Below are positions 2,358-64,000 of a stretch of 64,000 nucleotides of DNA, one piece after another. The position numbers were made by a program, and so were the translations under genes. Location: contig NZ_JAQNDL010000003.1 of assembly GCF_028368995.1 (NCBI RefSeq), forward strand, positions 1,600,001 through 1,664,000. The letters are read 5' to 3'. The first letter of the stretch is position 1. Every line of letters starts with the position of its first letter. Origin of the DNA: Nannocystis bainbridge (lineage in GTDB: Bacteria; Myxococcota_A; Polyangia; Nannocystales; Nannocystaceae). Below the pieces are notes generated by a model. The model was not told the DNA's origin, did not search any database, and saw only the letters and a program-made list of their open reading frames with translations.

Positions 2358-3379
2358 CGGCTCGCGCCTCCTCGCGCGGGAGTGACTTCGAAGATGCAGG
2401 CGCCGAGCGCCCCGTCGTCGTCGCTGCCGTACAGCAGCGCGCGACCGCGGCCGCTTCGCAGGTGGTGCAGCGCCAGCGCGAGGGCCAGCGCCGGCGCGGC
2501 GGCCCCGGTGTCGCCGAAGCTCTCGCACGCCCGCAGGTGCACCAGCGGCTCGGGCATCAGCGGCGCCTGACGCAGCGCAGCGTAGCTGAAGGCCCGCGCC
2601 TCGGCGACCTCGCCGGTCTGACTGCTGGCGACGCAGCGCGGCCGCTCGTCGCCGACGCCGGGCGCGCGCGCGAGGCGAGTGAACACGTCGGCGAGCCCGT
2701 CGGCCAGCGCCCGCACGCGCCCGCCGTCATCGTTCATATGTCCCAAAGTACATGCGATGATTCGCCCCAGCGGCGCACCCTCGACCTTCGCGCCGCCGGG
2801 ACCCCGCGCGAGCAGCAGCGCCACCGCGGCCTCGCCGGGGACAATGCCGTCGCGATGCGAGGCCAGCACGCGGTCGCGCAGCCCGAGCTGCTCCAGCGTC
2901 GCAGCGTCACACAGGCTGTCGGCCGCGAGCACCAGCGCGAGCGGCTCGGCGTCGGCCGCAGTAAGTCGCTCGAGCAGCTGGAACAGCCCGGCGCGACCGC
3001 CCCGCATCACCTCGCGCAGCTCGAGCGGCGTGGGCACCTCGGCCTGCAGCGCCGCCACGATCTCCGCCTCGTCGACGGGCGCCCCGCTCCGCTGCGGCGC
3101 CGCCAAATACAGCGGCAGCGGCGTCACCGGCAACCCGGCCAGACAGTCGCGCACGGCCCAGCCGGCCAGGGCCGCGATCCGCCCGCTGCGCCCGCATGTT
3201 GCTTCGAGCCGCGACGACCGCGAGGCCCGGATCGGCTCACCGCTGCGATCCTCGAGCTCGGTCTCGGCGAAGCGCACCACGCCCGCGCGCACGGCCGCCA
3301 GGGTCGTCGGCGCCGACAGCCCGAGCGGCGTGCCCATGCCGACGCGCAGGACCGCCAGCCCGCCGTCGCCCGCGTTCAC
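2354..3379 (-). CDS. T6SS-associated beta-ketoacyl-synthase-like (thiolase-fold) protein
   Basis: GTG start overlaps the DUF2169 stop (GTGA). Motifs GM.TPLGLSA, GIVPGEAA, FGDTGAA. Typical neighbour of DUF2169/DUF4150 genes. Confidence 0.8.
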   Translation of the reverse strand: MNAGDGGLAVLRVGMGTPLGLSAPTTLAAVRAGVVRFAETELEDRSGEPIRASRSSRLEATCGRSGRIAALAGWAVRDCLAGLPVTPLPLYLAAPQRSGAPVDEAEIVAALQAEVPTPLELREVMRGGRAGLFQLLERLTAADAEPLALVLAADSLCDAATLEQLGLRDRVLASHRDGIVPGEAAVALLLARGPGGAKVEGAPLGRIIACTLGHMNDDGGRVRALADGLADVFTRLARAPGVGDERPRCVASSQTGEVAEARAFSYAALRQAPLMPEPLVHLRACESFGDTGAAAPALALALALHHLRSGRGRALLYGSDDDGALGACIFEVTPARGGASR

Positions 3380-4359
3380 GTCGCCTCCCACGGCTCGAGC
3401 GCGCGCACCGTCACGCCCTCGAGCTCGAGCCAGTCGTCCTCGACCGCGAACGCGGTCCGCCAGATCATCGTGAAGCGGCGATCCTCGGCTTGCAGCGCCA
3501 GCGCGTCGAGCACCATGGCTTGCCGCCGTCGACCGCGTCGCCGCTGCAGCGTCGCGCGCAGGTGCAGGCGCGGCAGGCGAAACGCCAGCGGTCCGTCCGG
3601 GCTCACGCCCTCGAGCTGCACCACCTCGTCGCCGACGAGCCCCTCGCTCGCCACCAGCGCAGGCGCCGCGGCGTTGAAGAAGCGCGGGTCGAGATCTCCC
3701 GGCCAAAGCGGCGCGCGCGACTCCACCCATTGCGAATCGTAGGTGCCGGCGAAGCCCAATCGGGGCTGCCACGGACGGGCGATCGGCCCGAACCCGACCG
3801 GCGGCGGGCGATCCTCCCAGCGCTCGCACGGCGAATCCACCGCCTCGATCGCCGGCAGCGGCTGGCCCTCGGCCGCCTGCGCCGAACCATAGCCGCGACC
3901 CACCGGGTTGCGCGGATCGTCGGGGCCGCCGGCGCTGAACTCGTAACGCAGCGGCAATTGCGTGAAGGGCCGCGGCGGCGACGGGCGCAGCCCGGCCAGT
4001 CCGCGCGTCCACGTGCGCTCGCCGGTGATCGTCGCGGTGACGCGGCACGGCCCGATCCGAACGTCGACCCGTGAACGCTCGGCAGGTCGCCCACCCGGGG
4101 TCCAGGCGAAACCCTCGAGATAAATATCCGTCCCCGGGCGGTAATACGTGGTCTGCCCGGCGATTCGCAGGCTCGAGGCTCCGGGCTCCCCCCAATAGAC
4201 GTCCTCGAGCGGCGGCGCGACCTGCTCGTGAGCGACACGCGGCGGCTCCTCCATGACGAAGGTCCCCGCGACGCACACGACCAGCACGTCGCGCCCCTCG
4301 CCATTCACCGACGGGCTGGCCTGGGCCGCGAAGGGCGTCCAGTTGTGGACGATCGTCAT
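3376..4359 (-). CDS. DUF2169 family T6SS adaptor protein
   Basis: HNWTPFAA start, D.YWGEPGASSL, LPLRYE.SAGG, NPVGRG, GFGPI...W.PR...AGTYD..W, D.RFFNAA, C-terminal M.WR. Confidence 0.92.
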   Translation of the reverse strand: MTIVHNWTPFAAQASPSVNGEGRDVLVVCVAGTFVMEEPPRVAHEQVAPPLEDVYWGEPGASSLRIAGQTTYYRPGTDIYLEGFAWTPGGRPAERSRVDVRIGPCRVTATITGERTWTRGLAGLRPSPPRPFTQLPLRYEFSAGGPDDPRNPVGRGYGSAQAAEGQPLPAIEAVDSPCERWEDRPPPVGFGPIARPWQPRLGFAGTYDSQWVESRAPLWPGDLDPRFFNAAAPALVASEGLVGDEVVQLEGVSPDGPLAFRLPRLHLRATLQRRRGRRRQAMVLDALALQAEDRRFTMIWRTAFAVEDDWLELEGVTVRALEPWEAT

Positions 4360-4667
4360 CGTCCTGCCCGTCGTCCCGTCCGCGCTCGAATGTGCACACG
4401 CATGCGGTCACTCGTGGTCTGCCGCGTGTTCCTGGCACATCGAGCGCCGCTCCGCACGGCCCGGCCGCGATGATGCATGCAATTCGCCCTGGAGCGACCG
4501 CGGCGGCTCGCGCTCGCGAGGAGAGCAACCCGCGCAGGCCGCCGTCGTCCGACCTCATTGTGCATTCGCCAGCCCCCACGCGCGACCCTGCCCGCGGGCC
4601 GGCGAACTCGAGCGAGGGTCCGCACGATCGGCTTGCCGCACCAGCGATCCATGTCACGTTGTCGGCC

Positions 4668-6842
4668 GTGTCCTCCGATGGCCTGCCGGCGATCCTCGGC
4701 AACCGTGCGCTCTTCACGTTCGCGGTCGAGGGTTGCGCGGAGGAGCTGCGCGTCGTCCGCTTCACCGGCCGCGAGGCGCTCTCGTCGCTGTTCGAGTTCC
4801 GCATCGAGCTCGCCGCGGCGACGATGCCGCTCGACGAGCTGGTCGGCAAGCCCGCAGTTTTGACGATCGAGGGCCTGCACGCCACGCGCCACGTCCACGG
4901 CCACGTGTGCGAGGCCGGCTACATCGGCGAGAGCTCGAGCTACACGCTCTACGAGCTGACGCTGGTGCCGGCGATCTGGCGCCTGCAGCAGCGCAGCGAC
5001 TGCCGGATCTTCCAGAAGCAGACCACCCCGCAGATCTTGACCCGCGTGCTCGAGGCCGCGGGCCTGCCCCGCTCCGAGTTTCGCCTCGACCTGCAGGCCG
5101 CCTACGCGCCGCACGACTACTGCGTGCAATACCGCGAGAGTGACCTCGAGTTCGTCAGCCGACTGATGGAGGACGCGGGCATCTTCTATTATTACGAGCA
5201 CGCCGAGGATCGCCACGTGCTGGTGATGACGGACCGCGCCGGCAGCTGCGACCCGATCGAGGGCGACCCGACGCTGCGCTTCAACTTCGAGCACGACCGC
5301 GAGCACATCGACACGTTCCGCCTGAGCGAGGGCCTGCGGCCGCAGCGGGTCTCGCTGCGCGACCGCAACCTCCACCAGCCCGATCGATCGATGGAGGCGA
5401 GCGAGGGCGACGGCCGCGAGCGCGAGGTCTTCGACTACCCCGGCGGCTTTCAAGAGCCGGGCGCCGGCGCGCCGCACCACGGTGGGCTCAAGGCGCGCGT
5501 GCGGCTCGAGGCGCTGCAGGCCGACCGCCGGCGCGGCCTCGGCACCAGCGACAGCCCGCGCCTCGTGCCCGGCTTCTCGTTCACCTTCTCGGCCCCGGCG
5601 CGCGGCCACCTCGAGGGCGACTATCGCCTCGTCCGCGTGCGCCACCGCGGCGAGCAGCCGCAGGCGCTCGACGAGGGCGCCGCGGGCGAGTTCAGCTACT
5701 CGAACGAGTTCGAGTGCACCGACAAGCGGCTGCCGTACCGCCCCCCGCGGCAGACCGCGCGCCCGCAGATCCGCGGGGCCCAGACGGCGACGGTGGTCGG
5801 ACCGCCCGGCGAAGAGGTGCACGTCGACGAGCACGGCCGCGTGAAGGTCCAGTTCCACTGGGACCGCAAGGGCCAGCGCGACGACGACAGCTCGTGCTGG
5901 GTCCGCGTCGGCCAGGCGTGGGCCGGCAACGGCTTCGGCGCGCTGTTCATCCCGCGGGTCGGCCACGAGGTGCTCGTCGAATTCCTCGAGGGCGACCCCG
6001 ACCGCCCGATCGTCACCGGCAGCGTGTACACCGGCCTCAACACCCCGCCGTACCCGCTGCCGGCCGACAAGACGCGCAGCACGCTCAAGTCCGAGTCGAC
6101 GCCAGGCGGCGGCGGTTACAACGAGCTGCGCTTCGAGGACGCGAAGGGCCGCGAGGAGATCTTCCTCCACGGGCAGCGCGACTGGAGCGTGATCATCGAG
6201 CACGACGCGTCGCACCAGATCGGCCACGACGAGGCGCGCACGATCGCCAACGATCGCAGCAAATCGGTGGGCCACGATCAGAGCGAGTCGATCGGCCACG
6301 ACAAGACGATCGCGGTCGGCAACGACCACGCCGAGACGATCGCCCGCGACATGACGCTCGCGGTCGGCAGCAACCTGACCGCGGCCGTCGGCGCCAACAA
6401 GGCCGAGTCGGTCGCCCTGGCCAGCGCGCTGACGATCGGCGCCGTGTATCAGGTCAGCGTCGGCGGGGCGATGAACGAGACCGTCGGCCTCGGCAAGGCG
6501 GAGCAGGTCGGCCTGGCCCGGAGCGTGACTGTCGGCGCCGACAGCTCGGAGACCATCGGCGGCGGCAAGTCGGTGACCGCGGCCGACAACATCACCGCGA
6601 CCGCCGGCAACAACCTCGTGTTCGCCGGCGGCCGGCACGTCAACGTCACCGCCGGGAACAACCTCAACGTCGCCGTCGGCAAGCAGGCCAGCGTGATCGT
6701 CGCCGACAAGCTGACGTTCCAGTGCGGCGGCGCGACGATCGTCGTCAAGAAGAACGGCGAGCTCTCGATCCAGGCCGACAACCTCGACGTTCAGGCGCGC
6801 GGGCGGATCACCGTGCGCGGCGCCATGATCAAGCTCAACTGA
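4668..6842 (+). CDS. vgrG: Type VI secretion spike protein VgrG with C-terminal beta-helix repeats
   Basis: F.GREALSSLFEF, YCVQYRESDLEFVSRLMEDAGIFYY, GAQTATVVGPPGEEVHVDEHGRVKVQFHWDR, SCWVRVGQAWAG, IPRVGHEVLVEFLEGDPDRP. Start is approximate (in-frame GTG 4668 or TTG 4659). Confidence 0.96.
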   Translation: MSSDGLPAILGNRALFTFAVEGCAEELRVVRFTGREALSSLFEFRIELAAATMPLDELVGKPAVLTIEGLHATRHVHGHVCEAGYIGESSSYTLYELTLVPAIWRLQQRSDCRIFQKQTTPQILTRVLEAAGLPRSEFRLDLQAAYAPHDYCVQYRESDLEFVSRLMEDAGIFYYYEHAEDRHVLVMTDRAGSCDPIEGDPTLRFNFEHDREHIDTFRLSEGLRPQRVSLRDRNLHQPDRSMEASEGDGREREVFDYPGGFQEPGAGAPHHGGLKARVRLEALQADRRRGLGTSDSPRLVPGFSFTFSAPARGHLEGDYRLVRVRHRGEQPQALDEGAAGEFSYSNEFECTDKRLPYRPPRQTARPQIRGAQTATVVGPPGEEVHVDEHGRVKVQFHWDRKGQRDDDSSCWVRVGQAWAGNGFGALFIPRVGHEVLVEFLEGDPDRPIVTGSVYTGLNTPPYPLPADKTRSTLKSESTPGGGGYNELRFEDAKGREEIFLHGQRDWSVIIEHDASHQIGHDEARTIANDRSKSVGHDQSESIGHDKTIAVGNDHAETIARDMTLAVGSNLTAAVGANKAESVALASALTIGAVYQVSVGGAMNETVGLGKAEQVGLARSVTVGADSSETIGGGKSVTAADNITATAGNNLVFAGGRHVNVTAGNNLNVAVGKQASVIVADKLTFQCGGATIVVKKNGELSIQADNLDVQARGRITVRGAMIKLN

Positions 6843-6859
6843 GCAGCGCAGGAGATTCG

Positions 6860-8101
6860 ATGGCCGCGCGCGAGGTCGATCCGCTGTGGGACATCGTCGA
6901 GGAGCACTTCGACGAGGGCGAATTCCTGTGGCACGTCTGGCAGCAGAGCCTGATCGCCCCCGACTACAATCTCGACGAGGTCGCCGAGGGCCCCGAGGAG
7001 CGGTTGCTCGCGCACGTCGAGGGCCTGATCGTCAACGGGCCCCTGGTCGCCAGCCGACTGCTGCTGCCTGCGCTCGTCAGCGCCGCTCCGGCCCGCGTCA
7101 GCGTCGCCGCGCTGGCGCTGCTGCACGGTCCGCGCGGCGAGGCGGCGCTCGCCAACATCGTCGACGTCGTGCGCCGAAGGCCGCAGCAGCGCGGGCCTCT
7201 GGTGCGCGCCATGGCCTGCGTCGATGCGCCGTGGCTGCGGGCGCGCCTCCGCGAATTGCTGGCCGACGACGACCTCGGCGTTGTCGCCACCGCGGCTGCG
7301 GTGTTGACATTGCATCACGAGCCGCTCGGCGACGCCCTGGGGCTGCTGCTCGCCGACGACCAGAGCGCGACGCGAGCGCTGGCGCTGCGGGCCCTCGCCG
7401 ACGAGCCCGATCCGGGGAGATACGCGCGCGCCGTGCAGGCTGGCTTGCAGGAGCTCGACCCGATCGTGCTCGACGCGGCGATCGACGCCGGCGTGCGCCT
7501 CGGCCTCGCCCCCGCGTGGGCCCGCGCGCGCGAGCGCATGGCCGAGCCCGACGGCGGCGCCTCGATGTTGCTGTTGGCCTTGCGCGGCGAAGCGAGCGAC
7601 CTCGACGCGCTCGTCGCAGCCCTGCGCGACCGCAAGCGACGGCTGCCCGCCTTGTGGGCGCTCGGTTTTCGCGGCACGCCCGAGGTCGTCGACGCCGCGC
7701 TCGCATGGCTCGACGATCTCTCCGCGGGTCCGCTGGCCGGCGAGGTCTTCACCGCCGCGACCGGCATCGACCTCGCCGCCGCCGGCATGTCGCTGCCGCG
7801 CGACGACGATCACGAATCCTTCGACCATCGCCCCGAGGACGACCTGCCGCGGCCGGACCCGATGCTCGTCCTGCAGTGGTGGGCCCGGCACCGCCCGCAA
7901 TTCATCGACGGCCAGCGCTACCTCGCCGGTGCCCCGCGCTCGCACGCATCGCTGCTCCGCGAGCTGCGGTTCGGCGCCATGCGCCGGCGCCCCGGGCACC
8001 TCCTCGACCTCGCGCTCGACCTGCCGCCGCAGCGCCGCCCGCGGCTACCGCTCGGCGCGCCCACGGCCCAGCAGCTGCGCGCGCTTGCCTCGCTGAAGTG
8101 A
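6860..8101 (+). CDS. TIGR02270-family HEAT/helical-repeat protein (T6SS-linked)
   Basis: GGAG RBS then MAAREVDPLWDIVEEHFDEGEFLW..., EERLLAHVEGL, AGEVFTAATG, DLP.PD....WW, GQRYLAG, MRRR. Confidence 0.85.
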   Translation: MAAREVDPLWDIVEEHFDEGEFLWHVWQQSLIAPDYNLDEVAEGPEERLLAHVEGLIVNGPLVASRLLLPALVSAAPARVSVAALALLHGPRGEAALANIVDVVRRRPQQRGPLVRAMACVDAPWLRARLRELLADDDLGVVATAAAVLTLHHEPLGDALGLLLADDQSATRALALRALADEPDPGRYARAVQAGLQELDPIVLDAAIDAGVRLGLAPAWARARERMAEPDGGASMLLLALRGEASDLDALVAALRDRKRRLPALWALGFRGTPEVVDAALAWLDDLSAGPLAGEVFTAATGIDLAAAGMSLPRDDDHESFDHRPEDDLPRPDPMLVLQWWARHRPQFIDGQRYLAGAPRSHASLLRELRFGAMRRRPGHLLDLALDLPPQRRPRLPLGAPTAQQLRALASLK

Positions 8102-8110
8102 CGCGCGGGG

Positions 8111-24645: not shown

Positions 24646-24745
24646 CCGCTTCAAGGACATGTTCTCACGAACATGCCTCATCGAGCATGACCCAATGCAC
24701 ATGCCCGTTACGACATGCCCCGTAGAACATGTTCATTCGAACATC
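24646..24745. repeat. Tandem array of a degenerate 14-bp palindrome (TG-N10-CA)
   Basis: Units from 24660: TGTTCTCACGAACA, TGCCTCATCGAGCA, TGACCCAATGCACA, TGCCCGTTACGACA, TGCCCCGTAGAACA, TGTTCATTCGAACA. CAT recurs at 24658, 24672, 24686, 24700, 24714, 24728 and 24742. Confidence 0.9.
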
Positions 24746-29769: not shown

Positions 29770-32558
29770 GCGACGAACTCGGCCGCCGCGCCTTCCTCGA
29801 GCGCATGGCCGCCGGCCTCGCCGCCGCCGGCCTCGGCGGTTGCCTGGGCCGCGATCCGCCCGAGCGCATCGTCCCCTACGCGCGCCAGCCCGAGTACGTC
29901 GTGCCCGGCGTCCCGCTGTTCTTCGCCTCGGCCTTCGTGCGCGACGCCTACGCCCACGGCGTGCTCGTCGAGACCCATGAAGGTCGCCCGACCAAGATCG
30001 AGGGCCACCCCGAGCACCGCGCCAGCCTCGGCGCGACCTGTCCTTTCGGCCAGGCCATGGTCCGCGAGCTGTACGACCCGCGGCGCTCGACCGGCGTGCG
30101 CCGCGGGCCCGAGCCGAGCAGCTGGCCCGCGTTCCTGCGCGCCGCCCGACCGCAGCTCGGCCCCGGCCGGCGCCTCGGCGTGCTCACCGGCCCCACCACC
30201 TCGCGCATGCTCGCGGACGGCCTCGCCCGGCTCGCCGCGCGCAGCCCCGGCCTCCGGTGGTTCGCATGGAGCCCGGTCGGCCGCGACAACCTCCACGCCG
30301 GCCTGCAGCGGCTGCTCGGCGCCCCGCTCGCCTGTCACGCCCGCCTCGATCGCGCCCGCGTGGTCCTCAGCCTCGACGACGACTTCCTGTTCCTCGACCC
30401 CGGCCGCCTGCGCCACGCTCGCGCGCTCGCGCAGCGGCGCCGGGCCGAGCTCGCCTCCGCCGAGGCCCTGCGGCTGTACGCGCTCGAGAGCTTCCCCGGC
30501 CTCACCGGCGCCGCCGCCGATCACCGCCGCGCCGCCCGCGTCCACGACGTGCCCGGCCTCGCCCGCGACGTCCTGCGCGGCGTGCTCGGCGATCCCGTCG
30601 ACGACCCGTGGCTCGCCGCTGCGCTCGCCGACCTCAAGATCGCCGGCGAGACCGGCCTCGTGCTCGCCGGCCCGCACCAGCCGCCGCAGGTCCACGCCAT
30701 GGTCCACGCCACCAACCATGTGCTCGGCGCCGCCGGTCGCACGGTCGTCTACGGCCAGCGGCTCGAGCGGCAGCCCTTCGGCCCCGCGCACTCGCTCGCC
30801 GCGCTCGTCACCGCCATCGCCCGGCGCGAGCTCGACGCCCTGCTCATCCTCGACGAAAACCCCGTGTACACCGCCCCGGCCGCGCTCGGGTTCGCCGACG
30901 CTCTCGCCGAGGTCCCCTTCACCGCCCACCTCGGCCTCTACTGCGACGAGACCGGCGAGCGCTGTCACTGGCACCTCCCGCTCGCCCACCCGCTCGAGGC
31001 CTGGGGCGACGCCGCCAGCGACGAGGGCGAGGTCACCCTGTCGCAGCCGACCATCCGCCCGCTCTACGACGGCCTCACCGCGCCCGAGCTGCTGGCCGCG
31101 CTCGCCGACGACCCCGCGCGCGGGCGCGACCTGCTCGAAAGGACCTATCAAGACACCGTCCCGGCCGCCGCCGACCGCGAATCGTGGTGGCGCGCCGCCA
31201 TCCACGACGGCCGCCTGCCCGCGCCCGCAACCCCCGTCACCACCGCGGTCGCAAGCGACGTCCTCACCACATTTCTCTCGGAACATGTCCCATCGGACAT
31301 ATCTTCCCCCGACCTCGTGCTCGCCTTCCGCCCCGACCCTGCCGCCTGGGACGGCCGGTTCTCGCTCGACCCGTGGCTGCAGGAGCTGCCGCGGCCGATC
31401 ACCCGGCTCATGTGGGGCAACGCCGCCTTCGTCGCCCCCGACACCGCCCGCGCCCTCGGACTCGTGCACGACGCCTGCGTGCGCCTGCGCGTCGGCGACC
31501 GCAGCGTCGACGCCCCCGTCCACGTGCTCGCTGGCCACCCGCCCGACCAGCTCACCGTCCACCTCGGCTACGGTCGTCGCGCCCCCGTCGCCGGCGTCGG
31601 CTTCGACGCCCAGCAGCTGCGCGGCAGCGACGACGCCTGGTCCGTCGCCGTGATCGCCGAGCCGCTCGCGCGCCCCGGCGGCCTCGTCGTCGACCGTCAC
31701 CGCGGCGGCGAAGATCAGCCCGGCGACGCTCACGCCCGCTGGCTGCTGCGCGGCGAGCCCCACCCGCGCCTGCCCTCGCCCGCGCTGCGGCCCGAATCGT
31801 TGCACCCGACCCGGCCGTTCGCCGAGCACGCCTGGGCCATGACCATCGACCTCAACGCCTGCATCGGCTGCAACGCCTGCGTCATCGCCTGTCAGGCCGA
31901 GAACAACATCCCCAGCGTCGGCCCCGTCGAGTCCGCGCGCGACCGGGCCCTGCACTGGATCCGCATCGACACCTACGCCGACGACCGCGGCGACGGCCCG
32001 CGCTGGCGGTTCCAGCCGGTGCCCTGCATGCAATGCGAGCACGCCCCGTGCGAGGTCGTGTGCCCCACCGGCGCCACCCAGCACAGCCACGACGGGCTCA
32101 ACGACATGACCTACAACCGCTGCTTCGGCACCCGCTATTGCGCCAACAACTGCCCGTACAAGGTCCGGCGCTTCAATTTCTTCGACTACCCCAAGCGCGA
32201 CGAGGCCACCCTCCCGCTCCAGCGCAACCCCGACGTCACCGTGCGCACCCGCGGGGTCATGGAGAAGTGCACCTATTGCGTGCAGCGGATCCGCGGGGCC
32301 GAGATCGCCGCCCACCGCGAGGGCCGCAGCATGGCCGCCGGCGCCGTCGTCACCGCCTGTCAGGGCGCGTGCCCGGCCCGCGCCATCGAGTTCGGCGACC
32401 TCGCGCGGCCCGACGATCCGGTGCTCGCCCTGCGCCGGGACCCTCGCGCCTACGCCCTCCTGGCCGAGTTCGGCACCCGCCCGCGCACCACGTACCTCGC
32501 GCGCCTGATCGACCCCAACCCGGCCCTGCGCCCCGCGGCGCCGCCCGAGGAGGACTGA
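29766..32558 (+). CDS. actB: Alternative complex III molybdopterin-like/Fe-S subunit
   Basis: Tat motif GRRAFL, EGRPTKIEG.P.H, WLQELP.PITRL.W.N, C-terminal ferredoxin motifs CIGCNAC.IACQAENN, CMQCE.APC..VCP, RC.GTRYC.NNCPY, EKCTYC. Confidence 0.95.
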   Translation: MSDELGRRAFLERMAAGLAAAGLGGCLGRDPPERIVPYARQPEYVVPGVPLFFASAFVRDAYAHGVLVETHEGRPTKIEGHPEHRASLGATCPFGQAMVRELYDPRRSTGVRRGPEPSSWPAFLRAARPQLGPGRRLGVLTGPTTSRMLADGLARLAARSPGLRWFAWSPVGRDNLHAGLQRLLGAPLACHARLDRARVVLSLDDDFLFLDPGRLRHARALAQRRRAELASAEALRLYALESFPGLTGAAADHRRAARVHDVPGLARDVLRGVLGDPVDDPWLAAALADLKIAGETGLVLAGPHQPPQVHAMVHATNHVLGAAGRTVVYGQRLERQPFGPAHSLAALVTAIARRELDALLILDENPVYTAPAALGFADALAEVPFTAHLGLYCDETGERCHWHLPLAHPLEAWGDAASDEGEVTLSQPTIRPLYDGLTAPELLAALADDPARGRDLLERTYQDTVPAAADRESWWRAAIHDGRLPAPATPVTTAVASDVLTTFLSEHVPSDISSPDLVLAFRPDPAAWDGRFSLDPWLQELPRPITRLMWGNAAFVAPDTARALGLVHDACVRLRVGDRSVDAPVHVLAGHPPDQLTVHLGYGRRAPVAGVGFDAQQLRGSDDAWSVAVIAEPLARPGGLVVDRHRGGEDQPGDAHARWLLRGEPHPRLPSPALRPESLHPTRPFAEHAWAMTIDLNACIGCNACVIACQAENNIPSVGPVESARDRALHWIRIDTYADDRGDGPRWRFQPVPCMQCEHAPCEVVCPTGATQHSHDGLNDMTYNRCFGTRYCANNCPYKVRRFNFFDYPKRDEATLPLQRNPDVTVRTRGVMEKCTYCVQRIRGAEIAAHREGRSMAAGAVVTACQGACPARAIEFGDLARPDDPVLALRRDPRAYALLAEFGTRPRTTYLARLIDPNPALRPAAPPEED
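31258..31304. repeat. 14-bp-period palindrome units inside actB
   Basis: TTTCTCTCGGAACA followed by TGTCCCATCGGACA. CAT at 31270, 31284 and 31298. AT-rich patch in an otherwise very GC-rich CDS. Confidence 0.7.
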
Positions 32559-50902: not shown

Positions 50903-51109
50903 ACACCCGGGCTCCAGTCCAAAACCTGACCGCGCGACCAACTCTGACCTCCAAGCGTATCTTTGGACATGTCCCAGGGGACAGAAATACTCATCTCGCC
51001 CCTCGCTCGTTTCCGCCCTTTAATCGCCCTGGACGCTCTGAGACCCACTCTGCGCCCTCTATACTTTCGCCCTTCCAAAACTCACCCATCCGGGTGAACA
51101 TCATCGCGC

Positions 51110-56327: not shown

Positions 56328-56345
56328 TCACTTGACACCAGGAAT

Positions 56346-56500: not shown

Positions 56501-56512
56501 AATTCGTCGGCA

Positions 56513-57201: not shown

Positions 57202-58935
57202 ATGACACCTCGCTTGCGCACGATCACGCTCTCTCTGATTTGCGGGACCCCATGGCTCTCCGCGTGCGGCGACGACGGCACCGCCACCACCGAGAGCACG
57301 GCCTCCGGAGCCACCACCGACACCACCACCGGCGACGGCACGACGAGCCCCTCGACCACCACGGGCACGACCGAGCCGCAGCCGACCACCACCACGCCGA
57401 CCACCACCGACGCGACCCCCGACCCCACCGGGGTCACCACCTCGACCTCGAGCGACACCACCACCTCCTCGACCACCGACCCGGTCGACACCGAGTCGAC
57501 CACCGCCGCCGGCTGCGAGCCGCTGGTCGACTGCGGCGGCGCGTGTGTCGACATTCAGACCGACGCCGACCACTGCGGCGGCTGTGATGCCCCGTGTGGC
57601 GCCATGGAGGCCTGCGTCGACGCGGCCTGCGTCATCACATGTCCCCCGGGACAGGAGCTCTGCGACGGCGTCTGCGTCGACACCGGCGCCGATCCCGAGC
57701 ACTGCGGCGGCTGCGGTCAGCCGTGCCTCGACAGCGAGGTGTGCGGCGACGGGGTCTGCGCGCTTGAATGTCCCATGGGACAGGCGGACTGCGACGGCGC
57801 CTGCGTCGACACCGACACCGATCCCTCGCACTGCGGAGGTTGCGGCCAGGCCTGCGACGCCTGCCAGATCTGCAGCGACGCCCAGTGCGAGGCCCCGCCC
57901 GACCTGCCCCCGGCCGGGGCCATCGAGGGCCCGACCGACCTGTGCGCCGGCGCCGAGGCCATGTTCACCGTGCCCGAGGTGCCCGGCGCCGTCAGCTACA
58001 CGTGGAGCGGGCCCGTCGGTGCGACCGTCATCGCTGGCCAGGACACCGCCGCGGCGACCGTGAAGTTCGGCGCGACCGCCGGCCAGGTCTGCGTCAGCTA
58101 CAGCGACGGCTGCGCGACCTCGACGCCGAGCTGCATCGCCATCGCGCTGACCGGTGGCACGCCCGGGCAGCAGGTGTTCGCGGCGACCGGCGCGATCCAG
58201 CCGTTCGTCGTGCCCCAGTGCATCAAGACCCTCAAGATCACCGCCTTCGGCGCCCAGGGTGGCTCGGACGCCGGCGGGCTCGGGGCCAAGATGAGCGGCA
58301 CCTTCAACGTCACGCCCGGCGACCAGCTCGGCGTGGTCGTCGGCGAGCGCGGGGTCGCCAACAACTGCGGCAGCGCGCCGGCGACCGGCGGCGGCGGCGG
58401 CGGCTCGTTCGTGTGGCGGATCGCCGACGCCACCGAGCCATTGCTCGCAGCCGGCGGCGGCGGCGGCGGCAACACCAATTGGGATGACCTCAATTGCCGC
58501 AAGGGCCTCGACGGCGTGGTCGGCACGGCCGGCACCAGCGGCAACGGAGCCCCGAGCGCCGCGGGAGGCACCAACGGCAACGGCGGCGCCGGCAATGCCC
58601 CCTCGGGCACCGGCTCCGGCGGCGCCGGCTGGAAGAGCGCCGGCCAGGACTCGACCTATGGCACCGGCTGCACCGGCGGCAAACCGCCGCTCTTGTTCAC
58701 CGGCGGCGCCGGCAGCAACACCTTCGGCCCCGGCGGCCAGGGCGGCTTCGGCGGCGGCGGCGGGGCCGTGTGCGGCGCAGGCGGCGGCGGCGGCTACTCG
58801 GGCGGCGGCGCCGGCGAGGGCTCGACGTGCCGCGCCGGCGGCGGCGGCGGCGGCTCGTTCAACGCCGGCACCGCTCAGGACAATCAACCCGGCGCCCGCG
58901 CTGGCGCCGGCGAGGTGACGATCTCCTGGCCCTGA
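57202..58935 (+). CDS. Lipoprotein with Cys-rich CVD..TD..HCGGC repeats, Ig/PKD-like domain and glycine-rich C-terminal domain
   Basis: Lipobox LSAC, Thr stalk, three C.G.CVD..(T/A)D..HCGGC...C repeats, V.GA.SYTW, GAQGG, GGGGGGSF, AAGGGGG, GGGGYSGG. Confidence 0.85.
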   Translation: MTPRLRTITLSLICGTPWLSACGDDGTATTESTASGATTDTTTGDGTTSPSTTTGTTEPQPTTTTPTTTDATPDPTGVTTSTSSDTTTSSTTDPVDTESTTAAGCEPLVDCGGACVDIQTDADHCGGCDAPCGAMEACVDAACVITCPPGQELCDGVCVDTGADPEHCGGCGQPCLDSEVCGDGVCALECPMGQADCDGACVDTDTDPSHCGGCGQACDACQICSDAQCEAPPDLPPAGAIEGPTDLCAGAEAMFTVPEVPGAVSYTWSGPVGATVIAGQDTAAATVKFGATAGQVCVSYSDGCATSTPSCIAIALTGGTPGQQVFAATGAIQPFVVPQCIKTLKITAFGAQGGSDAGGLGAKMSGTFNVTPGDQLGVVVGERGVANNCGSAPATGGGGGGSFVWRIADATEPLLAAGGGGGGNTNWDDLNCRKGLDGVVGTAGTSGNGAPSAAGGTNGNGGAGNAPSGTGSGGAGWKSAGQDSTYGTGCTGGKPPLLFTGGAGSNTFGPGGQGGFGGGGGAVCGAGGGGGYSGGGAGEGSTCRAGGGGGGSFNAGTAQDNQPGARAGAGEVTISWP

Positions 58936-58952
58936 CCGCGCCCGCGTGACGC

Positions 58953-58983
58953 GTGTTCGGCGATCCCCGGGGTCGCCGAACAC
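58953..58983. terminator. Stem-loop between convergent genes
   Basis: GTGTTCGGCGA-N9-TCGCCGAACAC, a perfect 11-bp inverted repeat. Confidence 0.6.
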
Positions 58984-58985
58984 AC

Positions 58986-59046
58986 GGATATGTCCCGAAG
59001 GACATCTCGCCGGATCGCCCCCGCCCGACCTGCCCCGAAGGACAGA
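58986..59046. repeat. Two 14-bp palindrome units
   Basis: TGTCCCGAAGGACA (58991) and TGCCCCGAAGGACA (59031). Confidence 0.75.
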
Positions 59047-59055
59047 TCCAGCCTG

Positions 59056-60078
59056 CTACCGCCCCGGCAGCAGCGGCGCCAGCCAGGCCGCGTAGTATGC
59101 CAGCACCTCGCGGCCGATGAACCACGGCTCCTTCAGCAGACGCCGGCTCATCCTCGCCGGCACCGTGTATGCCAGCATGCCCGCCCGCTGGAACAGCAGC
59201 TTCACCCGCGGCTCATGATAATAGTGGCTCACCGCCAGCACCCGTCGCGCCCCGCGCTGCTGCAGCCATTCGCTCGTCACCGCCACCGTCGCGGCCGTAT
59301 CGACCCCCAGCTCGTCGAGCACGATCGCCTCCGCCGGCACCCCTGCTGCGATCGCCCGCGCCTGCATCGCCACCGGCTCCGACACCCCGTGGTCCTCGTC
59401 GATCGCCCCGCTCATGATCACCGTCGGAGCCAGCCCCGCGTGGTAGAGGCGGATCCCCTCGTCGACCCGATCGGCCAGCGCCAGCGACGGCCTCCCGTCC
59501 GAGTACACCCGCGCCCCGAACACCACGATCGCGTCCGCCTCGCGGGCGTAGCGGGTCGGTCCGAACGTCAGCATCAGCACCAGCGGCAGCGCCAGCGCCA
59601 CCCCCGCCGCCGTCGCCAGGCTGCGCACGACCTGTCCCCAAGACCATGTCCTCGCCGGCCCCGGCCGCCCCGCCGAACTCGCCAGCGCCAGCGACAGCGG
59701 CAGCACCAGCGCCGACCCTGGCAGCGGCAGCGGCGTGGCGATGCGGCCCTCGATCAGCAGCGCGAAGTACACCAGCGTGTCCCAGGCTGCCGCCGCCGCC
59801 ACTGCCAGCAGGCAGACCACCCCCGCCGCTCTCACCCAGCCGCGGCGCAGCGGCCCGAGCCCGCGGGCGATCAGCGTCGCCGCCAACATGGCCTTGAAGA
59901 CAGCCGCACCTGTCCCTCCGGGCAGGCTGATCCACGCCCCCGTCGCGTCGAAGCGCGGCCCTGCGATCAGCCGCCCGACCACGTTGAGGGCCACGAACAC
60001 CCCCAGCGCCAGCCCCACGTCCGGCAGCAGCGCGCGGACGCGAGCCCCGGACCCCGCTGCGTGCTCGTCTGCGATCAT
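59056..60078 (-). CDS. YdcF/SanA (DUF218) family membrane protein
   Basis: N-terminal TMs; ADAIVVFGA, S..LADR, IMSG, SE..AM, GVDT, VSH.YH.PR, REV.A. Confidence 0.9.
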   Translation of the reverse strand: MIADEHAAGSGARVRALLPDVGLALGVFVALNVVGRLIAGPRFDATGAWISLPGGTGAAVFKAMLAATLIARGLGPLRRGWVRAAGVVCLLAVAAAAAWDTLVYFALLIEGRIATPLPLPGSALVLPLSLALASSAGRPGPARTWSWGQVVRSLATAAGVALALPLVLMLTFGPTRYAREADAIVVFGARVYSDGRPSLALADRVDEGIRLYHAGLAPTVIMSGAIDEDHGVSEPVAMQARAIAAGVPAEAIVLDELGVDTAATVAVTSEWLQQRGARRVLAVSHYYHEPRVKLLFQRAGMLAYTVPARMSRRLLKEPWFIGREVLAYYAAWLAPLLPGR

Positions 60079-60196
60079 CCTCGGCGGAGGCACGCGCCAG
60101 CGCGCCCCGGTATTCCCGGCCCTGCCCGATCGGGTGGAACCCCTCGTCTGCGCCCGCCGGCCTCGATCTTCGCGCTCCCCGCGAGACCCGGCAAAC

Positions 60197-60244
60197 CTGC
60201 TGGATCTGCATGGTCTTTGTCACATGTCCTCATGGACATGTGAC
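60197..60244. repeat. Short tandem array of the 14-bp palindrome
   Basis: TGGTCTTTGTCACA followed by TGTCCTCATGGACA. CATG at 60209, 60223 and 60237. Contains the perfect inverted repeat GTCACATGTCC-TCAT-GGACATGTGAC. Confidence 0.8.
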
Positions 60245-60343
60245 CACAATCGCCCGCCGCCCGCGCTCGAACGCCCTCAGGTCCCCCGCGCGCGCGGCGA
60301 AAACTGCTTTACGGGCGCGCGCGGGAGCTTCTACGCTGCCGTC

Positions 60344-62152
60344 ATGAATCCTCGCCTGTGTATGAACTTGTGCACCTCGGCTGCCCTCGCGGCCGCGCTC
60401 TTCACCGCCTGCGGCGACAACGGCCAGGTAACTGCCTCCGAGGTCGCCACGATGTCGGGCGGGCCGACCGTCGTGACGACTGACCCGGGGACGACAGCCG
60501 GCAGCACCGACGCCCCGACCACGACCCCCACGTCGACCGACGGCACCGGCACCCAGGGCATGACCGACACCGGCACCACCCAGGGGCCGACCTCGACTGG
60601 ACCGGGCACCACCGACACCCCCGTGACCAGCACCACCGGTCCGGACACCACCGGCACGCCTGGCACCACCACTGTCGACACCACCGGCCTCCCGGGCACC
60701 ACCACCGTCGACACCGACACCACCACCGACTCCACCACCGGCGAGGACCCCTTCTTCGGCGAGATCCCCGAGACCTGTGATCAGGCCGAGCTGTCGAAGA
60801 GCACCGTCGGCTGTGCCTTCTACGCCCTCGACATGGACTCGCACGACTTCTCCGAGACCAGCCAGTTCGCGGTCGCCGTCGCCAACGTGCAGAAGGACCA
60901 GCAGGCCACCGTCACCGTCGAGCGCAAGCAGGGCGGCGTGTGGAACATGATCGCCGGCCCGGTCCAGATCAACGCGCTCGGGCTGCAGACCTTCAACCTG
61001 CCTGACCAGCACACCGACGACAGCCAGCTCGCGGCCGGCTTCGCCTACCGCGTCAAGTCGTCGGTGCCCGTCATCGCCTACCAGTTCAATCCGGTCGACG
61101 GCTCGTCCTCGTTCCTCTCGGACGCCTCGATGCTCTACCCCGTCACCGGCCTCGACTCGATCAACCACGTGATCGCGTGGACGTCGATGATGGACAACAC
61201 CAACACCTTCCAGCACAGCTACGCCAGCGCGGTCGCGGTGATGGACAACACCAAGATCAAGGTCACGCCGAGCACCGTCACCGCCGCCGGCGCCGGCGTC
61301 CCGGCCGGCCAGCCTGGCGTCCCGTTCGAGATCACCCTCAACGAGGGCGACGTGCTCAGCGTCGCCGTGCAGGGCCTCGGCACCTCGATGACCGGCACGA
61401 TCTTCGAGAGCGCCAAGGAGACCCCGTTCATGCTGTTCGCCGGCCAGGAGTGCGCCCTCATCCCGGCGGGCACCTGCTGCTGCGACCACATGGAGGAGCA
61501 GATCAGCGGCGTGCGCCTGTGGGGCAAGCACTTCATCGGCGCGCGCACGGCCGTGCGCAGCGCCAACGCCCCCGAGCCCTCGCTGTGGCAGATCTACGGC
61601 GCCGAGGACGGTACCACCGTCACCCTCAACGCCGACGCTCAGGTCACCGGCTTGCCGGCCAACCCGATCATCCTCGACAAGGGTCAGGTGGTCGAGTTCT
61701 ACGCCGGCGGTCCCACCGGCGAGCCGGGCGACTTCGAGATCACCGCCGACAAGCCGATCGGCGTGATGAACTACATGACCGGCGCCGAGAACCTGCCGCC
61801 CCAGTTCTTCAGCGTCGGCGACCCCGCCGCCGTGCAGATCCCCTCGGTCGAGCAGTTCCTGCCGCGCTACGTCGTCCTCGTGCCCGGGACGTGGGTCAAC
61901 GACGTCGGCGTGTTCACCCGCCAGGCCGGCGCGGTCGTCACCATCGACGGCGTGGCGATCGCCGACTCCGCCTGGAACCCGGTCGCCGACAGCGACTACG
62001 AGGTCGCCCGCGTCCCGCTCGGCGACGGCGTCCACGTGCTCGAGGGCGGCGACGTCCCGTTCAGCGTCATCATCGTCGGCTGGGACCAGCACGACAGCTA
62101 CTCGTACCTCGGCGGCACCGGCACCAAGATCGTCAACCCGACGCCGATGTGA
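60344..62152 (+). CDS. IgGFc-binding-domain lipoprotein
   Basis: Lipobox FTAC, Thr stalk, STVGC.FY, SSVPVIAYQFNP, SDAS.L.P, CDHMEEQ, GDPA, SYSY.GG. Confidence 0.87.
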   Translation: MNPRLCMNLCTSAALAAALFTACGDNGQVTASEVATMSGGPTVVTTDPGTTAGSTDAPTTTPTSTDGTGTQGMTDTGTTQGPTSTGPGTTDTPVTSTTGPDTTGTPGTTTVDTTGLPGTTTVDTDTTTDSTTGEDPFFGEIPETCDQAELSKSTVGCAFYALDMDSHDFSETSQFAVAVANVQKDQQATVTVERKQGGVWNMIAGPVQINALGLQTFNLPDQHTDDSQLAAGFAYRVKSSVPVIAYQFNPVDGSSSFLSDASMLYPVTGLDSINHVIAWTSMMDNTNTFQHSYASAVAVMDNTKIKVTPSTVTAAGAGVPAGQPGVPFEITLNEGDVLSVAVQGLGTSMTGTIFESAKETPFMLFAGQECALIPAGTCCCDHMEEQISGVRLWGKHFIGARTAVRSANAPEPSLWQIYGAEDGTTVTLNADAQVTGLPANPIILDKGQVVEFYAGGPTGEPGDFEITADKPIGVMNYMTGAENLPPQFFSVGDPAAVQIPSVEQFLPRYVVLVPGTWVNDVGVFTRQAGAVVTIDGVAIADSAWNPVADSDYEVARVPLGDGVHVLEGGDVPFSVIIVGWDQHDSYSYLGGTGTKIVNPTPM

Positions 62153-62236
62153 TCGCATCGGACATGTCCTGAACGACATGTCCATTTGAAAATGACCCAT
62201 CGGACATGCTCTTCAGGGCATGTCCGATGGGCCATC
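62151..62236. repeat. Tandem array of the 14-bp palindrome
   Basis: Units from 62165: TGTCCTGAACGACA, TGTCCATTTGAAAA, TGACCCATCGGACA, TGCTCTTCAGGGCA, TGTCCGATGGGCCA. Fills the gap between convergent genes. Confidence 0.9.
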
Positions 62237-62246
62237 CTTCATCCGC

Positions 62247-63605
62247 TCAGCCGCCGCACAGGCGGCCCAGCCACGGCTGCTGCGTCCCGCCGTCCTCGCC
62301 GAGGAACGCCCCGCTGACGATCACCGCCCCGTCCGACGTGAACGCCGCGGTGTTGGCGTCGCCCCAGCTGTACGGCAGCCCGAACTCGTGCTCGAAGCTC
62401 CACAGCAGCGCCCCGTCGGCCGCCATCAGCCCCACCCACAGGTCCTTGCGCTGGCCCCACTCGTTGCCCGGCTGCGGCGGCTTCTCGACCCCGCCGACCA
62501 GCAGCAGCGCCCCGTCCTGGCGGAGCCCGTCGCCGAAGCGCAGGCTCTCGGCGCTCGCGTCCGGCAGCGGCATCGTCCACGCCACCGCCCCGTCGCTGGC
62601 GAACTTGCGCAGCGACAGCGGGCTCGGCTTCGCGTCGGGCGTCTCGAGCAGGTAGGCCGCGCCCGCCTCGCCGACCAGCACCGCGCGCGGCTCCGTGGGA
62701 TCTCCCTCGAGCGCGTGCTCCCAGCTCGGCGCCCCATGGTCGTCGAAGCGGGCGATCCACAGCCCCTCGGGGCTCTCGGTGCGGGCGGCCAGCACCACCG
62801 ACCCGTCGGCCCCGAGGTCGTGGCGGACCTTGTAATCGGCGTTGTCCGGCGGCGCCAGGATCGCCTCGCCCAGCACGTTGCCGGCCGTATCGAGGCGCAC
62901 GTGCTTGAACGGCTCCTCGTACGATCCCGCCAGCACGAAGATCGTCGCGCCGTCGGTCGCCAGCTGACCCAGCGGTGAGTACGAGGTCCACGGCTGGGCC
63001 GGCGGCCGCGCGAGCTCCCAGCGCCACACGTGGGCGCCATCGGGCGCGAAGCGGAGCACCACCAGGCGCGCGTCGTAGGTCCCCATCATCTCGCCCTCGA
63101 CCGCGAGGATCGTCTCTTCCACCAGCACGTGGACGAACCCCGACGCATCGATCGCCACGTCGACCGCCCCGTCCTGGAGGCCGTTGGCGCCGGCGTAGGA
63201 GTCGCTCCAGACCGCCGCGCCCTCGGCGTCGCGCAGCTCGACGAACGCGTCGCCGTCGTCGCCGACCGCCGTCCGGCCGGCGACCACCGCCGCGCCGTCG
63301 CGCGCGCCCGCGAGCCCGGGCATGAATCCCGGCAGCTCCGCCGCGCTGCGCGCCCACTGCAGCGCGCCGCCGACCTCCCCCGGCCGGCACACCGGCGCCG
63401 GCGGGTCGCCCGTGCTCGGGTCGCCTGACGGATCGCCCGTGGTCGTGGTCTCGAGCTCGCCGCTGGTGCCCGTCGGCGGCGGACCGCCGGTCGGCGCCTC
63501 GGTCCCGCTGCTGCTGCTCGTGCTGCCGTCGGTCCCGGCGCTCGAATCATTGCACGCGAGCAGCAGCGACCACGAAGTCAGCGCCGCGATCGTCGCCCGC
63601 GTCAC
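62247..63605 (-). CDS. Lipoprotein with stalk and beta-propeller-like repeats
   Basis: Lipobox LLAC; repeated (R/K)F..DG...W blades; GTG start overlaps the upstream stop. Confidence 0.78.
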   Translation of the reverse strand: MTRATIAALTSWSLLLACNDSSAGTDGSTSSSSGTEAPTGGPPPTGTSGELETTTTGDPSGDPSTGDPPAPVCRPGEVGGALQWARSAAELPGFMPGLAGARDGAAVVAGRTAVGDDGDAFVELRDAEGAAVWSDSYAGANGLQDGAVDVAIDASGFVHVLVEETILAVEGEMMGTYDARLVVLRFAPDGAHVWRWELARPPAQPWTSYSPLGQLATDGATIFVLAGSYEEPFKHVRLDTAGNVLGEAILAPPDNADYKVRHDLGADGSVVLAARTESPEGLWIARFDDHGAPSWEHALEGDPTEPRAVLVGEAGAAYLLETPDAKPSPLSLRKFASDGAVAWTMPLPDASAESLRFGDGLRQDGALLLVGGVEKPPQPGNEWGQRKDLWVGLMAADGALLWSFEHEFGLPYSWGDANTAAFTSDGAVIVSGAFLGEDGGTQQPWLGRLCGG

Positions 63606-64000
63606 GACCGGGCCCTCCGCCGCCGCGCCCCCAGCAGCAGCAGCAGCGCCAGCGCCGGGGCGCCCGCGCGCTCCTGTCCCAAAGAGCAGCCGCCCTTGCG
63701 CTCGCCCGCGGGCGGCTCGCCCTCGCTGCCCGACCCGCTCGAGCCGGACTCCTCGCTCGCCGTGTCACTGCCGGTCGTGTCACTGCCGGTCGTCTCGCTG
63801 CCGGTCGTCTCACTCGAAGTAGTGCCACCCGTCGTCTCACTGCCCGTCGTCTCGCTCGCGGTCGTGCCGCCCGTCGTCTCGCCCGCGCTGCTGGTGCCCG
63901 GCTCTGGCCAGTCGCTGGTGCTCTCCTCGCCCTTGCACACGCCCTCGTGGGCGATCTTCACGCCCGCGCAGGTCTCCGCGTAGCAGGCGTTGGCGTAGGA
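63602..64000 (-). CDS. Kazal-like domain protein with MYXO-CTERM tail (5' end outside window)
   Basis: Frame open from the window end: SYANACYAETCAGVKIAHEGVC (Kazal Y.N.C...G.C), SETTG repeat stalk, KGGC then a hydrophobic helix then RRRR. Confidence 0.8.
   Translation of the reverse strand, partial: SYANACYAETCAGVKIAHEGVCKGEESTSDWPEPGTSSAGETTGGTTASETTGSETTGGTTSSETTGSETTGSDTTGSDTASEESGSSGSGSEGEPPAGERKGGCSLGQERAGAPALALLLLLGARRRRARS

Follow-up and report, generated by a model that had tools for sequence, protein, structure and literature searches.

A strictly phased 14-bp palindromic repeat, found mainly after genes, in Nannocystis bainbridge

The window and its 14-bp sites

The window analysed here, a stretch of 64,000 nt from Nannocystis bainbridge (assembly GCF_028368995.1, NZ_JAQNDL010000003.1, positions 1,600,001-1,664,000, which is C2:1600001-1664000 of the genome that we denote G000), carries copies of a 14-bp palindromic site, TGTCC-N4-GGACA, both inside and between its genes. 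The G000 assembly comprises 11.05 Mb in 5 contigs, with 71.5% G+C and a completeness of 90.49%. The genes of the window include those for a VgrG-like type VI secretion spike, Ser/Thr kinases, an ActB-like Fe-S protein of alternative complex III, cytochrome oxidase subunit I, and proteins with IgGFc-binding domains. In a protein atlas, clusters closest to the ActB-like protein come most often from Myxococcota, and a search with the cytochrome oxidase subunit I (COX1) protein yielded only distant relatives, spread over many phyla. Genes were called with a crude script based on the G+C content of third codon positions (GC3), which returned 7921 calls covering 84% of the genome bases, and every genic or intergenic statement below depends on these calls. 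Sites were scored by the number of matches over the 10 defined core positions, TGTCC and GGACA, around a free N4, a score of 10/10 being an exact site. The relatives cited for individual window sites (G001, G003, G005, G007, and G010) belong to the same genus.

The original prediction had listed twelve copies of the 14-mer in the window, ten of them inside genes, and had interpreted them as a DNA-level signal written into coding sequence with rare synonymous codons. All twelve are present. The sites at 31286, 50970, 57640, and 57769 score 10/10, those at 2739, 30039, and 59911 score 9/10, those at 9122, 46357, 59633, and 63675 score 8/10, and the site at 52473 scores 7/10. Synonymous-codon shuffling of the window gene set (51 crude calls, 1000 shuffles) gave an expectation of 0.07 exact sites in genes vs. 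three observed, a count that none of the 1000 shuffles reached. At 9/10, three sites were observed vs. 1.9 expected (reached by 283 of the 1000 shuffles), and at 8/10 the numbers were 12 observed and 24 expected. The excess of exact intragenic sites (three) lies far outside chance. By the window alone, the 9/10 sites (three) are indistinguishable from chance. The 8/10 sites, four of the ten listed inside genes, stand at chance level, and so does the intergenic site scoring 7/10; the prediction had allowed that its weaker picks might be chance.

The first of the exact intragenic units lies on the plus strand at 31286..31299, in the gene for an ActB-like Fe-S/molybdopterin oxidoreductase (29757-32558), where it is read as CAT GTC CCA TCG GAC ATA (H V P S D I). 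Its core is kept in all five same-genus orthologues; the spacer and flanks vary, changing the encoded amino acid (HVPSD vs. HVPED), and the segment is unalignable in G026, the single out-of-genus homologue compared. The same gene contains a plus-strand 9/10 unit at 30039..30052, read as TGT CCT TTC GGC CAG (C P F G Q), with a TGT codon that is kept in five of five relatives and a score that rises to 10/10 in two of them. The other two exact units, also on the plus strand, occupy paralogous cysteine-rich repeats of gene 57202-58935, one at 57640..57653 (TGT CCC CCG GGA CAG, C P P G Q) and one at 57769..57782 (TGT CCC ATG GGA CAG, C P M G Q). Both cores are kept in G001, the single relative aligned here, with one spacer change at the first site, and these two sites in CPxGQ repeats may be true overlays on coding sequence. 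The remaining 9/10 units are on the minus strand: one at 2739..2752 in the minus-strand open reading frame 2354-3391 (codons TGT, ACT, TTG, GGA, and CAT), where no relative is aligned, and one at 59911..59924 in the minus-strand gene 59056-60078, which is kept at 9/10 in G007 and G010.

The product of gene 57202-58935 combines its STIG1-like cysteine repeats with a PKD-like domain and a glycine-rich C-terminal half. The gene lies near two others (52766-54451 and 60362-62152) that encode paralogous proteins with an IgGFc-binding-protein domain (PF17517).

The densest copies in the window are intergenic. Those at 24660-24743, 58991-59044, 60219-60244, and 62160-62234 were absent from the original prediction, which listed one of the five intergenic features (50965-50983, given as 50970). 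The array at 24660..24743 has six units (five at 8/10 and one weaker) and stands directly after the stop codon of the minus-strand gene 24746-25312. CATG recurs every 14 bp at the aligned place in G007, G003, G010, and G001, with spacers that vary by species (G005 lies outside the aligned blocks). Two units at 58991..59044, one scoring 10/10 at 58991 and the other 9/10 at 59031, lie in the convergent region of genes 57202-58935 (+) and 59056-60078 (-). A further array of about five units, at 62160..62234, fills the convergent region between the stop codons of 60362-62152 (+) and 62247-63605 (-), and arrays with different spacers are found at the same place in G007 and G010.

Two features belong to divergent intergenic regions. 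At 60219..60244, an exact unit with extended arms makes up a 26-bp palindrome, GTCACATGTCC-TCAT-GGACATGTGAC, a related copy of which is found in G007. At 50965..50983, GGACATGTCC leads into the exact unit TGTCCCAGGGGACA, in a segment that falls in no aligned block of any relative. This unit adjoins a strikingly A+T-rich stretch of about 70 bp (50830-50900) in the divergent spacer upstream of 50347-50835 (-) and 51110-51442 (+), and a sigma-70-like match overlaps the unit.

Positions 1-16700 of the window contain few units and show no synteny with the five relatives examined except at 8140-9290, with a dip to 65% G+C at 12-16 kb. This part, in which the VgrG-like spike gene (4560-6842) lies, is possibly an acquired island.

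Architecture, placement, and conservation of the repeat

Across the 11.05-Mb genome, TGTCC-N4-GGACA is present in 1987 exact copies, vs. 3-16 for three palindromic controls of the same composition. Copies at 9/10 number 4258 (161-236 in the controls) and copies at 8/10 number 7530 (3152-4366 in the controls), so that the genome total is about 2000 exact units and about 6000 units scoring at least 9/10. Exact and 9/10 matches are nearly all real, and about half of the 8/10 matches are due to chance. A chance origin of the motif as such is ruled out by the palindromic controls, by dinucleotide shuffles, and by synonymous-codon shuffling.

Position profiles around 1987 and 1715 sites gave an extended consensus that is symmetric only, RCA/TGTCC-NNNN-GGACA/TGY, where the slashes mark unit boundaries. 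GGACA is directly followed by TGTCC in 956 cases genome-wide. Half-site spacings peak at TGTCC-N18/32/46-GGACA (379, 243, and 152 cases) and at GGACA-N14/28/42-TGTCC (638, 275, and 238 cases), with spacings off these 14-bp steps at a background of roughly 0-50 each, and the distances from CATG to CATG peak at 14, 28, 42, 56, and 70 bp (counts of 3736, 2073, 1586, 751, and 383). Because half-site and CATG spacings peak only at 14-bp steps, the element is a head-to-tail array with a strict 14-bp period, in which abutting palindromic units share the 10-bp palindrome GGACATGTCC. The longest chains contain up to 8 units (units scoring at least 8/10). Within the unit, the tightest positions are T1, G2, and C4 with their mirror positions, which are the bases around CA/TG, and the loosest is position 3/12. 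The 4-bp spacers are 48% A+T, vs. 29% in the surrounding DNA, and are essentially uncorrelated between neighbouring units, with the exception of a modest excess of identical spacers three units apart (10% vs. 2% background). Copying of one master element and higher-order palindromes were both rejected, since neighbouring spacers are uncorrelated whether compared as direct or as reverse-complement copies.

The pattern GGACATGTCC-N4-GGACA was found in 11 of 11 genomes of the genus, with 1 to 311 matches each. Larger and more complete assemblies have more matches, and the assembly with only one, of 4.5 Mb, is 64% complete. Beyond the genus, a first sample of 20 genomes of other genera gave a single match in one genome and none with a reversed-pattern control, and a phylum sample of 300 further genomes gave one match each in six. 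An unbiased scan of 4-mer spacings recovered the 14-bp period in 400 kb each of G000 and G007. In one sister-genus genome (G013), of which 400 kb were sampled, neither this period nor any comparable arrays built on a different core were seen. A search of the literature outside subscription journals found no description of the repeat in bacteria.

With respect to genes, the crude calls leave ~16% of the genome non-coding, and this part contains 58% of exact copies; the density of copies per kb is 7-fold higher outside genes. The density of units scoring at least 9/10 is highest in convergent intergenic regions (4.93 per kb), lower in co-directional ones (1.72), and lowest in divergent ones (0.62). 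The distance of these units from the preceding stop codon peaks at 20-40 bp, most units lying 0-100 bp after stop codons, and the distance to the next start codon is flat. Among convergent regions of 80-300 bp, 74-77% contain at least one unit (at least 8/10), with 2.3-2.8 units each, and in convergent regions of 40-120 bp about one-third of all bases fall within units. The original prediction had centred on copies written into coding sequence, and this emphasis is not borne out: intragenic copies are a minority, and the repeat is mainly found in 14-bp-phased arrays just after genes.

Along the chromosome, sites scoring at least 9/10 occur at a density of 56 ± 21 per 100 kb, with every 100-kb bin of the 5 contigs occupied (10 to 108 per bin). 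Site density falls in low-GC bins (r = 0.58), a point in favour of the prediction, which had suggested a check for depletion in horizontally acquired islands. Its suggestion of a segregation or nucleoid site fared less well in the form of a chromosome-domain site. No confinement to or exclusion from one domain, of the kind associated with Noc, SlmA, or MatP, was seen across the 100-kb bins of this 5-contig assembly, in which origin and terminus are unplaced; the dips in density follow low GC. Two adjacent 100-kb bins at C1:1100000-1300000 have 10 sites each (mean 56), with 69% G+C and a GC skew near zero, and are a large atypical region.

Alignment of 470 kb of G007 with G000 produced 99 blocks totalling 300 kb; third codon positions have a background identity of 0.83, and alignable non-coding DNA one of 0.78. 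At the intergenic exact sites in these blocks (n = 19), identity was 0.905 in the core, 0.487 in the spacer, and 0.723 in the far flanks. The presence or absence of units is concordant in 70 of 76 orthologous intergenic regions of the two species, which are ~15% diverged, and the number of units is equal in two of ten orthologous convergent regions and different in the other eight. The arrays are old and fixed in place; their cores are constrained, and their spacers and unit numbers drift. Stable positions and conserved cores therefore speak against an element that is still mobile and favour selection, or else a sequence-specific drive that continues to act.

These observations bear on the proposal that the repeat is selfish or mutation-driven DNA without cellular function. 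Such DNA, whether minisatellite-like or similar to repetitive extragenic palindromic (REP) sequences or miniature inverted-repeat transposable elements, would spread by slippage, hairpin template switching, or a putative transposase, and would persist where it is least harmful, namely after genes, within the spacers of convergent genes, and in the linkers of proteins. The placement described above matches the tolerance pattern reported for REPs in the part of the literature drawn on here (PMC3733652). The identical spacers three units apart, together with an exact 42-bp duplication in the CarA gene (see below), point to unit duplication, and the varying unit number of orthologous convergent regions, the lower density in atypical low-GC regions, and the in-frame array insertions in CarA and other genes are all in keeping with this proposal. 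It is countered by the agreement in presence and absence between diverged species, by the uncorrelated spacers, which show that the units are not copies of a master element, and by the contrast of core and spacer identity between genes and the conserved third codon positions within them, which need selection or a continuing sequence-specific drive. A search for the REP-associated tyrosine transposase (RAYT; Y1/IS200-like, PF01797), positive in six of 14 control genomes, gave no match in G000, which is 90.49% complete, and a RAYT-driven REP was rejected on this search of an incomplete assembly. We regard a selfish or purely mutational origin as improbable.

Copies inside genes

For a genome-wide test of the intragenic copies, 5568 confident gene interiors (6.98 Mb, ends trimmed) were compared with within-gene synonymous-codon shuffling. 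Exact sites number 643, vs. 18.6 ± 4.0 after shuffling (35-fold), and 9/10 sites number 1385 vs. 333 (~4-fold). Sites at 8/10, with 3106 vs. 3614 after shuffling, are at chance level. The original prediction had been staked on this comparison, and for strong matches the intragenic count is far from the codon-shuffled expectation, bearing out a genome-wide DNA-level signal that overrides codon preference. The codons involved are rare in the genome, as had been noted for TGT (8.8% of Cys codons), GGA (2.2% of Gly), and ACT (1.7% of Thr), and as also applies to ACA (1.9% of Thr) and CAT (8.8% of His). The sites are evenly spread along genes, with a flanking GC3 of 0.93 that dips over ~20 codons around the site.

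Exact sites are enriched in all three reading frames (52 vs. 1.3, 215 vs. 1.6, and 376 vs. 16.5 after shuffling). A protein-level cause was rejected, as the three enriched frames encode different peptides (HVPxD, MSxGT, and CPxGQ) and almost no peptides recur. A recognisable neighbour at 14 bp accompanies 23% of intragenic sites, vs. 0.5% at other offsets, and in-frame arrays of 5-6 units occur within long, high-scoring genes, where they encode linker-like peptides, such as EGHVREGMS, that repeat every 14 residues. The three reading frames could be three successive units of an in-frame array (H-V, M-S, and C/A-P), which could account for the Cys-encoding frame being the rarest.

An array of this kind forms part of the interdomain linker of CarA, the small subunit of carbamoyl-phosphate synthase, where 84 bp are occupied in frame in six large genomes of the genus. 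The alignment showed no such array in G009, of the same genus, or in nine genomes of other genera, where the linker is shorter and unrelated. Across species, the unit cores of this array persist and the spacer-encoded residues change. In G000 (C4:601063-602289, L177), EGHVREGMS is encoded by two identical stretches at a distance of 42 bp, and the other five species differ there, which suggests a recent three-unit duplication or gene conversion. Rickettsia palindromic elements are about 100-150 bp long and occur as single elements in frame inside conserved protein genes, to which they add a peptide segment. The CarA linker array is comparable as an in-frame palindromic repeat that adds peptide; unlike those elements, the inserts described here are arrays of 14-bp units, and their main habitat is extragenic.

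Comparison by tblastn with the 400-kb sister-genus sample placed three of 13 exact sites opposite an alignment gap, vs. 33 of 840 control windows (p = 0.015), and amino-acid identity was 0.31 over exact sites vs. 0.62 in control windows. Intragenic 9/10 sites fall in between, with an identity of 0.47 and a gap opposite 2 of 39. Within genes, it appears to be the DNA that leads and the protein that follows, and the intragenic copies appear for the most part to be no overlay on pre-existing proteins. The overlay on protein coding proposed in the original prediction is accordingly a divided matter: the override of codon choice is real, and the sites lie in poorly conserved segments, some of them in-frame insertions.

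Third codon positions at intragenic sites were compared in the G000/G007 alignment. At exact sites (n = 12), identity was 44/46 in the core vs. 85/109 in the far flanks, and at 9/10 sites (n = 43) it was 142/156 vs. 318/388; core and flank identity did not differ at 8/10 sites (n = 94). Pooling exact and 9/10 sites gave 186/202 in cores vs. 403/497 in flanks (Fisher p = 2e-4), the reduced synonymous change at the motif for which a check had been suggested.

The intragenic excess over synonymous shuffling in all three frames and the conservation of core third positions speak for a genome-wide mark on double-stranded DNA (for example a site for a nucleoid-associated or segregation protein, or a signal for self-recognition or uptake), selected everywhere and overlaid on coding by codon choice, with the arrays after genes being simply where many sites pack. 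The motif is also strand-symmetric, with sequence rather than pairing conserved (see below), it is spread over all 5 contigs and depleted in low-GC bins, and it is genus-specific, as uptake sequences are. CdbA of Myxococcus xanthus, a ribbon-helix-helix nucleoid protein, has thousands of predicted GC-rich repeat sites and shows that a motif of this kind can belong to a nucleoid protein; its motif, however, is a direct repeat, not a palindrome (PMC7156744). A general nucleoid mark does not predict a 7-fold higher density outside genes or the 8-fold higher density of convergent over divergent regions. The intragenic sites, moreover, lie in the least conserved protein segments and include some insertions, and are therefore not written onto pre-existing conserved peptides. 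We think a mark of this kind unlikely.

The uptake sequences of Neisseria and Pasteurellaceae (DNA uptake sequences and uptake signal sequences) are non-palindromic 9-12-mers without fixed tandem phasing, which occur inside genes and as inverted pairs after genes. The motif described here is like them in being a short, lineage-specific sequence with thousands of copies inside and after genes, and unlike them in being palindromic and tandem-phased.

Recognition of the repeat and its possible role

GGACATGTCC is self-complementary, and neighbouring junctions can pair to form stems of 8-10 bp in which the spacer is a 4-nt loop, GGACATGTCC-N4-GGACATGTCC being a 24-nt hairpin. Folding of intergenic arrays with at least three units (120 of 359) gave a mean z of -4.2 vs. 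dinucleotide shuffles. G2/C13 is nearly invariant, with no compensatory pairs and no covariation, and the symmetric C-G excess is 2.36 across the junction, where no hairpin pair is possible, vs. 1.69 within the unit. The sequence itself is conserved, rather than pairing alone. Because G2/C13 never covary and the C-G excess is equally strong across the junction, sequence-specific recognition is favoured over mere pairing. In the outer stem, G.U and A.C mismatches number 1119 and 972 at a score of at least 8/10, with no background keto excess (0.97-0.99). Rfam gave no match at the gathering score over the whole window. The element may be recognised in duplex DNA, or as a hairpin formed by RNA or single-stranded DNA; the data fit either level of action.

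The most conserved positions flank CA/TG, at the invariant CATG (RCATGY) core, and we take CATG to be a known methyltransferase target. Hyperabundance of the motif might then be tied to a DNA methyltransferase or repair system acting on this core, in the manner of highly iterated palindrome 1 (HIP1) of cyanobacteria. HIP1 (GCGATCGC) is likewise a palindrome far above codon-aware expectation, 15- to 300-fold over-represented, with sites inside open reading frames and between them that are conserved between genomes (PMC5861425); for HIP1, as for the arrays here, selection is argued from this cross-genome conservation. HIP1 differs in being an 8-mer, and neither phased tandem arrays nor a concentration after stop codons is reported for it in the material cited (PMC5861425), whereas the motif here has 10 defined bases in a 14-bp frame, belongs to one genus, and is mostly extragenic. 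Methylation leaves the 14-bp phasing and the post-stop placement unexplained. The methyltransferase families PF02086 (D12 class) and PF01555 (N6/N4) are present in 25 and 30 of 31 genomes, respectively, both in the genus and in array-free genera, and as a correlate they are uninformative; PF00145 was not searched for. We consider a HIP1-like basis very unlikely.

A closer likeness is to the REPs of Proteobacteria and the bacterial interspersed mosaic elements (BIMEs) in which they are grouped. As described in the source consulted, REPs are 20-40-bp palindromes with a GTAG or CGTC tag, located between convergent and unidirectional open reading frames and sometimes inside genes (PMC3733652). The repeat described here shares with REPs and BIMEs the short palindromes with hairpin potential, in hundreds to thousands of clustered, lineage-specific copies and the location mostly downstream of genes, between convergent and co-directional open reading frames, with occasional intragenic copies (PMC3733652). 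It differs in several respects. Its 14-bp units are strictly phased head to tail with free 4-bp spacers, whereas REPs are imperfect palindromes that alternate in orientation; its stem G.U bias appears weak or absent; and its positions are stable between species. A GTAG or CGTC tag is also absent, the profiles around 1987 and 1715 sites showing only the symmetric consensus.

On balance, the 14-mer is probably the unit of a genus-specific, REP-like family of palindromic repeats of unusual architecture, which selection retains where transcription units end. Arrays would be maintained there through a putative sequence-specific factor that recognises the core, in the form of either a symmetric duplex site or a hairpin. 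Their role could resemble those proposed for REPs and BIMEs: the setting or protection of transcript 3' ends, the insulation of convergent transcription, or the handling of supercoils. Growth of the arrays would proceed by unit duplication, and the intragenic copies would be instances of this element that are tolerated where proteins are variable or form linkers; at such places it may dictate rare codons and even amino acids.

Several observations weigh against this interpretation. The enriched and conserved intragenic copies fit poorly with a pure transcription-end role, and no T-run follows the units. In co-directional regions, the transcription-oriented spacers are symmetric (CGAA 87 vs. 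TTCG 86). In REPs, tolerance of G.T pairs in the stems, in the transcribed sense, is the signature of a role at the RNA level. Mismatches of the repeat on the sense strand are G.U-compatible rather than A.C in 673 vs. 544 cases at a score of at least 8/10 (p = 2e-4), but the difference is not significant at 9/10 or better (222 vs. 198), and an opposite bias of similar size (583 vs. 673) is seen in arbitrarily oriented convergent regions. Units lie within 150 bp downstream of 18 of 102 tRNA genes and upstream of nine; with so few tRNA genes followed by units, the arrays are therefore not general terminators. The proposed function is deduced only from placement and conservation, the cross-species tests concern one species pair and few sites (12 exact sites inside genes and 19 between them), and all gene coordinates come from the crude GC3-based caller, so that gene starts may be misplaced.

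A classical intrinsic terminator was considered as a candidate and rejected on the lack of a T-run, on the tRNA genes, and on consensus terminator-like matches in 48000-64000 that do not coincide with the arrays.

A more specific version, which we hold to be possible though doubtful, is that the arrays are loading platforms for a putative genus-specific, symmetric DNA-binding protein that polymerises in 14-bp register at most transcription-unit ends. The register would correspond to three dimers per four helical turns. Such platforms could provide a sequence-encoded insulation or termination of convergent transcription, or the management of trapped supercoils, and the constraint would have to be strong enough to retain the motif even where it dictates the amino acids of linkers.

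If the arrays are selected, as the REP-like reading holds, they would mark, in the sequence of a large, high-GC genome, where transcription units end, and would be a REP-like system whose architecture is different and very regular and for which no mobilising enzyme is known. It is a tractable system, with 10 defined bases, thousands of copies, positions conserved across at least six large genomes in few contigs, and array-free sister genera as controls, and this makes the long-standing question of the function of REP-like and HIP-like repeats directly testable. The linkers of CarA and of the ActB-like protein show cleanly how protein sequence can be shaped by a non-coding constraint on the DNA. 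In annotation, arrays mark the 3' ends of genes and explain local runs of rare codons.

Outside cellular genomes, the two-junction pattern was found in exactly one of 2.9 million viral contigs of IMG/VR (L210, 8231-8943), which carries two tandem units and a third unit at 9/10 within 9 kb (three matches vs. 0.34 expected). This contig may be a provirus or phage of the genus. A search of sequencing runs listed only DNA runs from soil and other metagenomes, with no RNA among them.

A second spacing signal concerns TGCA. Distances from TGCA to TGCA peak at 12 bp in G000 (C2:1600001-2000000), G007, and G013 (21, 34, and 26 pairs), at a ratio of 2.6-5.2 over distances of the same phase. The peak is thus shared by the sister genus that is without 14-bp arrays, and may reflect a coding motif or another, separate conserved site.

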